DNA from: a virus
Lineage: Duplodnaviria > Heunggongvirae > Uroviricota > Caudoviricetes
Direction: 5' to 3' (one strand)
Length of the DNA: 6,063 nucleotides
Virus record (IMG/VR): IMGVR_UViG_2706794672_000006
Positions within the stretch are counted from its first letter, which is position 1, and every line of letters starts with the position of its first letter. The translations under genes were made by a program, and so were the position numbers. Below, piece after piece: positions 1,102-2,033 of the stretch. The notes under the pieces were generated by a model that saw nothing but the letters and a program-made list of their open reading frames with translations, ran no database searches and was not told the origin of the DNA.

Positions 1102-1896
1102 CTAACAGNNNNNNNNNNNNNNNNNNNNNNNNNNNNNNNNNNNNNNNNNNNNNNNNNNNNNNNNNNNNNNNNNNNNNNNNNNNNNNNNNNNNNNNNNNNN
1201 NNNNNNNNNNNNNNNNNNNNNNNNNNNNNNNNNNNNNNNNNNNNNNNNNNNNNNNNNNNNNNNNNNNNNNNNNNNNNNNNNNNNNNNNNNNNNNNNNNNN
1301 NNNNNNNNNNNNNNATATAGCACCCTGACTGATACTGTAGTACCTAAGGTTCCAGAAACTGTGATGTATCCGGNNNNNNNNNNNNNNNNNNNNNNNNNNN
1401 NNNNNNNNNNNNNNNNNNNNNNNNNNNNNNNNNNNNNNNNNNNNNNNNNNNNNNNNNNNNNNNNNNNNNNNNNNNNNNNNNNNNNNNNNNNNNNNNNNNN
1501 NNNNNNNNNNNNNNNNNNNNNNNNNNNNNNNNNNNNNNNNNNNNNNNNNNNNNNNNNNNNNNNNNNNNNNNNNNNNNNNNNNNNNNNNNNNNNNNNNNNN
1601 NNNNNNNNNNNNNNNNNNNNNNNGTTGTACTCCTGAACAAGAGCAAATAATTCTGAATTAGCAACCATGAACTCATCGCAAACCCTCTGTATAGCATCAC
1701 TATTCAGAATAATAACGTCTCTTCCCGAAAGACGATCAGGAGTACAGAACAAAACTGTCAAACGGCTGAAGGCCTTTGCTCGTGCTGCATTGACTATATC
1801 AATACGCTGCCTAAGGATGAAACACCCCGACGCCTCATCAATATTCACTCTACCCACACCATATGAATGATAAATATTTAATGCTGAAAAAACCAT
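1102..1896 (-). CDS. Hypothetical cargo protein of unknown function in the Stx-equivalent slot; only the N-terminal 91 codons (1624-1896) and a 19-codon island (1315-1373) are visible
   Basis: Minus-strand frame open across all of 1624-1923, giving MVFSALNIYHSYGVGRVNIDEASGCFILRQRID... from ATG 1894-1896 (the ORF track uses TTG at 1923). Visible part has 4 of 8 Arg codons as AGA/AGG and 2 of 8 Ile codons as ATA. Continuity through the N blocks to the stop at 1102 cannot be verified. Confidence 0.35.
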   Translation of the reverse strand: MVFSALNIYHSYGVGRVNIDEASGCFILRQRIDIVNAARAKAFSRLTVLFCTPDRLSGRDVIILNSDAIQRVCDEFMVANSELFALVQEYNXXXXXXXXXXXXXXXXXXXXXXXXXXXXXXXXXXXXXXXXXXXXXXXXXXXXXXXXXXXXXXXXXXXXXXXXXXXXXXXXXXXXGYITVSGTLGTTVSVRVLYXXXXXXXXXXXXXXXXXXXXXXXXXXXXXXXXXXXXXXXXXXXXXXXXXXXXXXXXXXXXXXXXXXXXXC

Positions 1897-2033
1897 TAGA
1901 CCGTATAACAAACACTCAATCAATACTTAACAGAACTTTTATTTTTGACAAACATAAAATATTTTCAACAATATCCTGAGCCAGGTATATTTCAGTATAA
2001 GGCTCTGCCGGAAGGAATCTGGAAGAATGAATA

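Follow-up and report, generated by a model that had tools for sequence, protein, structure and literature searches.

Gene order at the locus

The window examined here, a stretch of 6,063 bases in all, covers the late-regulatory region of a prophage that is lambdoid and of the Escherichia/Shigella type. The genes are encoded on the minus strand, and in the order of transcription the window contains RusA, the antiterminator gene Q, a hairpin segment, a gene of 65 aa, a DNA methyltransferase gene, a second copy of the post-Q segment, a tRNA with a CAU anticodon, a tRNA-Arg, and the small gene with which this work is chiefly concerned. The Q gene, which lies at about 4237..5063 (minus strand) with its N-terminal part masked, matches PF03589 and is annotated in relatives as an antitermination protein; Q is the upstream regulator of the late transcript. 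A terminator scan places a terminator-like hairpin after Q at 4156-4137 (minus strand), and this is followed by the 65-aa gene (3815-4012, minus strand) and by the methyltransferase gene, which ends at 3664 on the same strand. The second copy of the post-Q segment, at 2326..2441 (minus strand), duplicates 4131-4250 and has a hairpin at 2349-2330; in a relative, 2326-2441 and 4131-4250 both align to one stretch of sequence. The two copies bracket a module composed of the 65-aa gene and the methylase gene, and 8 additional bases are present in the copy at 4131-4250. None of the complete E. coli genomes joins the first post-Q copy to the 3' end of the methylase gene as the window does. Downstream of the second copy lie the two tRNA genes, both on the minus strand: the tRNA with the CAU anticodon at 2211..2286 (detected by ARAGORN and Rfam), which RefSeq names tRNA-Ile in relatives, and tRNA-Arg (UCU) at 2034..2110 (ARAGORN; Rfam tRNA). 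The small gene, a member of the phrog_2873 family, comes next at 1570..1848 (minus strand); its frame is visible at 1624-1896, and its 3' end is placed from relatives.

Following the small gene is a gene for a small hydrophobic DUF3927 protein (43 aa in relatives), which occupies 1102..1233 on the minus strand, the position equivalent to 6616-6747 in the related locus L010 and to 4280-4411 in L001, where the annotated name is 'DUF3927 family protein'. In the window only 1102-1108 of this gene is visible, that is, its last two codons and its TAG stop, and the ending, a C followed by the stop, agrees with the relatives. The protein of a relative matches PF13064 with E = 1.7e-27 and phrog_1470 with E = 7.8e-13, and the DUF3927/TciB-like membrane proteins of these families fit 1102-1233 by position, by the last two codons, and by the stop; this gene is separate from the ORF that holds the N-terminus of the small protein. 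Just outside the span lies the gene for STnc100, a prophage sRNA whose family is related to PasD (bioRxiv 10.64898/2026.05.13.724894), at 847..1036 on the minus strand with its terminator hairpin at 877-856. Its match to the Rfam model (RF02076) is full length (model positions 1-206), with a score of 133.6 bits where the gathering threshold is 47 (E = 2.6e-29). Relatives have one copy of STnc100 or two, in tandem in L003, L005, L016, and L018, and the copies are about 71% identical.

The plus strand carries, at 486-821, an intact gene of 111 aa whose product is IraM/PmrD-like (phrog_4407, E = 3e-72; precomputed PF11183). In relatives this gene has the RefSeq name 'anti-adapter protein IraM', and it is frameshifted in L001; its GC content is very low (0.35), and 6 of its 13 Ile codons are AUA. 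A short DUF1737-type ORF ('MAFKHYDVV...'), at 52-240 on the minus strand, is an incomplete pseudogene in the annotation of relatives; in other relatives the same ORF is the N-terminus of a 617-aa esterase of the SASA family, nanS-p type.

The canonical arrangement in E. coli (L039, L040) runs RusA, Q, 65-aa gene, methylase, tRNA-Ile, tRNA-Arg, and the small gene, and continues with DUF3927, STnc100, the IraM-like gene (on the opposite strand), DUF1737/esterase, and holin. In another E. coli clade the small gene follows a gene for an AraC-family regulator, downstream of Q and the methylase. The Citrobacter homologue has Q on one side and a TerB-like gene, DUF3927, holins, and endolysin on the other, and the Serratia homologue comes after Q and three tRNAs, before the lysis genes. 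The slot between Q (often with tRNAs) and the holin/endolysin genes is kept in E. coli, Citrobacter, and Serratia prophages, and the initial annotation was correct in placing the gene after Q and the tRNAs of the phage; the lysis cassette lies downstream of it. One clade of 91-aa proteins (about 35% identity) is found outside any phage late region, on plasmid-like contigs (L029-L031, gene at 6001-6276), where its neighbours are a K88-type chaperone-usher fimbrial operon and tRNA-Thr(UGU), with a Rep3 replication gene and an integrase nearby.

The small gene and the phrog_2873 family

The visible 91 aa of the small protein match phrog_2873, a profile of 108 positions listed with unknown function, over positions 1-91 with E = 7.5e-59, and the full protein of a relative (L010) matches positions 1-108 with E = 2.8e-70. 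The visible part of the window's copy, which shares 98-99% identity with the variants most often found in E. coli/Shigella, has nothing that distinguishes it from this family: it shares the full-length profile match, the length seen in relatives, and the lambdoid late-region context. A database search yields a second E. coli clade at 57-60% identity, locus look-ups a third at about 61%, and profile searches find homologues of 91-110 aa, at 20-40% identity, in Citrobacter, Serratia, Morganella, and Xenorhabdus.

The minus-strand frame of the initial annotation is confirmed, with a start at ATG 1896 (TTG 1923) and its 91 visible codons exactly as claimed. In about 30 loci the frame remains open over 92 codons; an IS element splits it in L014. 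Between clades, differences at the three codon positions number 24/22/43, an excess at the third position, and stops abound in the other frames. Coding evidence of this kind argues strongly that the visible frame is a real protein-coding gene. As for its start, conservation begins at 'VNIDE', which corresponds to the GTG at 1846-1848, and in the diverged clades and all of the distant homologues the start is no more than a few residues away from the equivalent position; one GenBank annotation (P0062) also uses the GTG-equivalent start. An alternative in-frame ATG at 1894-1896 gives a protein of 108 aa, and an AF2 model of this longer form has residues 1-17 disordered (pLDDT <50). Because conservation and the homologues start at the GTG and the preceding residues are predicted to be disordered, the product is most likely the 92-aa protein initiated at GTG 1848. 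A length of 92-108 aa, with the stop after '...RITHLG', is seen in all relatives examined; in the window, bases 1374-1623 are N, and the 3' end of the gene (the last 17 codons and the stop, about 1570-1623) lies under this mask and is taken from the relatives.

RefSeq/PGAP leaves the gene unannotated in most genomes, where the region of the match carries either no feature ('none') or only 'tRNA-Arg'. (Copies that are intact and yet are mostly skipped by PGAP include those at 6886-7164 in L039 and L040.) This absence from most RefSeq genomes, together with a DNA identity of 95% or more for most copies, could be taken to mean that the 92/108-aa frame is not a gene at all, that it is conserved through the recent spread of prophage DNA, and that PGAP is right to omit it. 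We consider this very improbable, since clades that share only 68% of their nucleotides retain 92 gapless open codons with a dN/dS of 0.26, the mark of purifying selection, since homologues of the same length and with a confident two-helix model occur at 20-40% identity in other genera, and since several annotations do call the gene. The omission by PGAP, despite purifying selection, looks like a systematic annotation gap for the phrog_2873 family.

The visible DNA (417 bases) is present in 1,186 of 5,426 complete E. coli genomes (about 22%) at >=95% identity by megablast, whereas among 50,697 records of sequenced phages the gene is found in one, mEp460_ev081; the accession given for the gene in phage mEp460 is LR597641.1. 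The gene is very common in prophages and rare in sequenced phages, and since just a single phage record contains it, a role in productive phage growth would be no more than putative. The initial annotation had called the gene undescribed; in fact it is small, common, and already catalogued, both as phrog_2873 and among the hypothetical proteins of NCBI and UniProt, where its public name is 'hypothetical protein' throughout (e.g., WP_097292279.1 and UniProt A0A0E1IJ19).

Masked bases and the anatomy of 1102-1923

In the initial annotation, 1102-1923 (minus strand) had been read as an ORF, which would have 273 codons. This frame is open solely because N is translated as X (456 of the 822 bases are N), and as masked bases cannot reveal stop codons, the '273-codon cargo gene' is an artefact. 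In about 25 related loci whose flanks are 97-100% identical to the window (among them L001, L002, L005-L013, L015, L039, and L040), this frame reaches a stop 17 codons beyond what is visible in the window, so that the stop that unmasking would expose was found, by proxy, in every relative examined. The frame of the relatives reads '...LVQEYN' up to the point where the mask begins in the window and then RIARTCGMDELRITHLG and the stop, so that the product would have 108 aa with the ATG as its start, 117 aa with the TTG, and 92 aa with the GTG. By alignment, the stop at 1102-1104 ends the DUF3927 gene (43 aa), which is separate from the small gene and, in relatives, is read in another frame. The 273-aa ORF is a concatenation of the N-terminus of one gene, a run of Ns, a 59-base island, a second run of Ns, and the last two codons of DUF3927. 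What survives of the cargo gene that had been placed after the tRNAs is a real coding gene to which no function is assigned; its size is about 92-108 aa and not 273, and the span contains two genes plus non-coding DNA. The span is very probably made up of the phrog_2873 gene, hidden sequence, and a separate gene for the DUF3927 membrane protein, with STnc100 just outside; this high confidence covers the identity and anatomy of the elements, and the mechanism considered in the next section is put forward at a much lower level. (A fused protein composed of the 108-aa ORF and DUF3927 was also considered and rejected: members named DUF3927 share one 90% cluster, but the sequences are separate proteins.)

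Four runs of N interrupt the window (1109-1314, 1374-1623, 2442-2691, and 4859-5108), the first being 206 long and the other three exactly 250. Between the first two lies the unmasked island of 59 bases (1315..1373, no strand assigned), which is absent at the equivalent position from all loci with the canonical arrangement and is 100% identical to the sequence directly 3' of an STnc100 copy in L003, L004, L005, and L036. (That the island is open in two of three frames was given no weight as a sign of coding; in L003 the corresponding frame has its beginning within STnc100 and carries no annotation.) From 1108 to 1624 the window has 515 positions, compared with 214 in all relatives, among them L005, L010, L039, L040, and L042, a difference of 301. 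Because 1109-1623 is hidden, the 3' end of the small gene in the window itself is deduced from the relatives, and this copy could have a different C-terminus or a rearrangement.

Three accounts of the hidden bases have to be weighed against each other. That a single gene of about 273 aa, a stxA-analogous moron for a toxin, effector, or defence protein, fills the interval from 1923 down to 1102 is extremely improbable. The visible bases, the island included, are free of stops, and the window has more bases here than any relative, their hidden content being formally unknown, but in all of the relatives a stop closes the frame 17 codons beyond the visible part, the frame's 3' end consists of the last two codons and the stop of DUF3927, and the island is elsewhere non-coding DNA beside the terminator of an sRNA. 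In addition, the phrog_2873 profile and all homologues fall at 91-110 aa, and none of the homologues found exceeds 122 aa. A local rearrangement of the window's copy, in which about 300 bases (the island and probably a second STnc100) stand between the small gene and DUF3927, is a more serious possibility, though one we regard as somewhat doubtful; here the last 17 codons of the gene may also be altered or truncated. Such an arrangement would account for the 515 bases in place of 214, and it is consistent with the location of the island directly after an STnc100 copy in L003, L005, and L036. Since tandem copies of STnc100 occur, as in L003, L005, L016, and L018, and the island adjoins STnc100 elsewhere, the hidden bases 1374-1623 may contain a second STnc100; the extra pR'-like repeat at 2326-2441 indicates, moreover, that the locus is mosaic. 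Against this, an STnc100 of 190 nt and the 54-nt 3' end of the gene leave almost no spacer within 250 hidden bases, and the arrangement occurs in no genome or contig of the collections searched. Neither the spacing of the window nor its placement of the island has a counterpart in the complete E. coli genomes and phages, which were searched by megablast of the unmasked pieces, or in IMG/VR, the GTDB representatives, and the JGI metagenomes, which were scanned for the exact arrangement by pattern, or in the contigs reached through two of the window's fully visible proteins; a 60-mer scan of the genome collection found the canonical relative L042 alone.

The remaining account, whose chances we judge to be nearly balanced, is that the lengths of the N-runs and the placement of the island do not represent the true genome, either because the masking did not preserve length or because the runs are scaffold gaps in an assembly with several prophages, and that the locus is canonical with its 214 bases. 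The mask at 4859-5108 provides the clearest argument for this, as its 250 Ns correspond to 245 bases in all 15 relatives, with flanks of 88-100% identity, and five real extra bases at this place would shift the frame of Q relative to its usual start, which overlaps the stop of RusA. Furthermore, every structural difference from the relatives falls under an N-run, and three of the four runs are exactly 250 long. The first run, at 206 instead of 250, does not conform to this pattern, and the left end of the island is not at a repeat boundary in L003. (An origin of the island as a scaffold unitig fits its right boundary and not its left one, and is kept merely as part of this account.) Whether the locus is rearranged or the N-runs are unreliable, a single 273-aa gene is very unlikely.

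Expression, predicted protein, and comparison with known systems

The existence of the gene, its size, its family, its synteny, and its fold class can be regarded as established; its dependence on Q and a mechanism based on protein binding are what we infer. On the strand of the gene, the interval between the hairpin at 2349-2330 and the STnc100 terminator at 877-856 contains one terminator-like site, which is weak and lies inside the ORF (1734-1716), and in the relatives no terminator-like site is found directly after the small gene before the STnc100 terminator. Since no strong terminator is seen between the Q-proximal hairpin and STnc100, a Q-antiterminated late message is the simplest interpretation. 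Of the protein-coding genes, the small gene comes first behind the Q-proximal terminator and the phage tRNAs, with the holin/lysis genes further on, and it would most likely be expressed as part of the Q-antiterminated late transcript.

The initial annotation had also proposed that the gene is enriched in the codons read by the adjacent tRNAs, as described for stx. Its counts are right: in the visible codons, AGA/AGG account for 4 of 8 Arg codons and AUA for 2 of 8 Ile codons. The proposed relationship does not follow from them, as the excess of AGA/AGG over the other visible genes of the window (4/8 versus 9/64) is marginal, with a Fisher p of 0.03 that is uncorrected and comes from a tiny n, and AUA is less frequent than in these neighbouring genes (2/8 versus 17/48, p = 0.70). 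In other clades of the family the AGR fractions are 2/9, 2/8, 1/4, 3/7, and 0/2. Judged from composition, the rare codons track low GC and the general habit of the prophage region, and they do not demonstrate a specific match between cargo and tRNA; the GC content of the small gene is 0.41, compared with 0.48-0.53 for Q, RusA, the methylase, and the 65-aa gene.

The 92-aa protein has a mass of 10.4 kDa and is mildly acidic (pI 5.7). It has no signal peptide, no hydrophobic or TM segment (the maximal 19-residue hydropathy is 0.94), and no hydrophobic N-terminus, and consequently it should be a soluble, cytoplasmic protein. The AF2 model of the 108-aa form (pLDDT 82, pTM 0.69) predicts two helices, at residues 19-49 and 66-97, which are antiparallel and are joined by a conserved 'FCTPDR...DVIILN' loop (the 'TPDR' loop). 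Profile searches of the small protein against Pfam, NCBIfam, PADLOC, and PDB yield nothing significant; a Pfam search does not find the RIP domain (PF00161), a PDB sequence search gives no match below E = 0.06, and Foldseek against PDB and BFVD returns generic helical hairpins alone, at E >=0.12. Several sub-threshold hits were rejected as the noise that is typical of coiled-coil-like sequence, namely a Pfam match of 12 residues to RHIM (E = 0.046), a match to GapR/UPF0335 (E = 0.06), and partial PADLOC matches to HEC-07 (E = 8e-4, in 4 of 20 members). In shape, the model resembles helical-hairpin modulators such as the TraM anti-activator (2q0o) and prefoldin subunits, which likewise consist of a pair of long helices in antiparallel orientation (TMq 0.59-0.60 over about 86 residues). 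The Foldseek E values for TraM 2q0o and prefoldin, at 0.6-1.3, and the best value overall, 0.12, are not significant, and there is no sequence similarity, so this is an analogy of shape and not membership; structure searches also connect the helical-hairpin fold with many unrelated functions. As the likeliest mode of action, though with more doubt than confidence, we suggest that the product may serve as an accessory protein without enzymatic activity, which would form oligomers by way of its helices and bind a protein of the phage or the host.

In Stx phages, stxAB lies downstream of Q, the Q-proximal terminator, and tRNAs of the ileZ/arg type, and upstream of a nanS-p-like esterase and the lysis genes. 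The small gene resembles stxAB in its position, and in relatives L005, L033, L035, and L036 an esterase of the nanS-p type is found downstream. In other respects the two differ. The Stx A subunit is about 315 aa in length, whereas the small protein is 92 aa, has neither a RIP/Stx A-subunit domain nor a signal peptide, and lacks a B-subunit partner, its neighbour being DUF3927; the codon-tRNA relationship, as noted above, is weak. None of the sequenced Stx phages in the phage collection carries the small gene, and the initial annotation had rightly observed that the protein is unlike Stx, as it matches neither Stx nor any Pfam family.

The further suggestion that the locus encodes a toxin, effector, or defence gene fares less well. 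The small protein is not a secreted toxin: it is predicted to be a plain two-helix hairpin with neither a signal peptide nor a TM segment, and the results of the fold searches are generic. A different possibility is that the gene is a moron with its own promoter, expressed from the prophage as an anti-defence factor or as a factor for superinfection exclusion or defence. In keeping with this, its GC of 41% lies below the 48-53% of Q, RusA, and the methylase, one clade resides on plasmids, away from any phage context, the gene is met very often in prophages and seldom in sequenced phages, a few members have the marginal HEC-07 matches, and a promoter-like site (9/12) is present at 1968-1941 on the minus strand. 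However, promoter-like sites are no more numerous here than in shuffled sequence, the PADLOC matches, seen in 4 of 20 members, are partial, with E values no better than about 1e-3, and defence genes are not conserved as neighbours. We therefore consider such a moron unlikely, and continue to favour the late message governed by Q. An uncharacterised family at the head of the late operon in several enterobacterial genera might conceivably turn out to be a new late regulator, acting on lysis timing or on Q/late transcription, or else an anti-defence protein, but either outcome would be something of a long shot.

The main value of these results is corrective, in that an apparent large gene in the position of Stx is an artefact of masked bases and the locus hides no toxin-sized cargo; nothing here suggests a role in virulence. 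What remains is of modest value: a conserved family under purifying selection, never characterised and mostly skipped by RefSeq. About one in five complete E. coli genomes carries its DNA, and other Enterobacterales have homologues.

At the right end of the window, about 5830-5960 includes an apparent IS-element terminus and the first ~20 codons of a transposase ORF, which may be IS2-like, and beyond this the sequence diverges. The near-identical relatives of the window are IS-rich, Shigella-like genomes.
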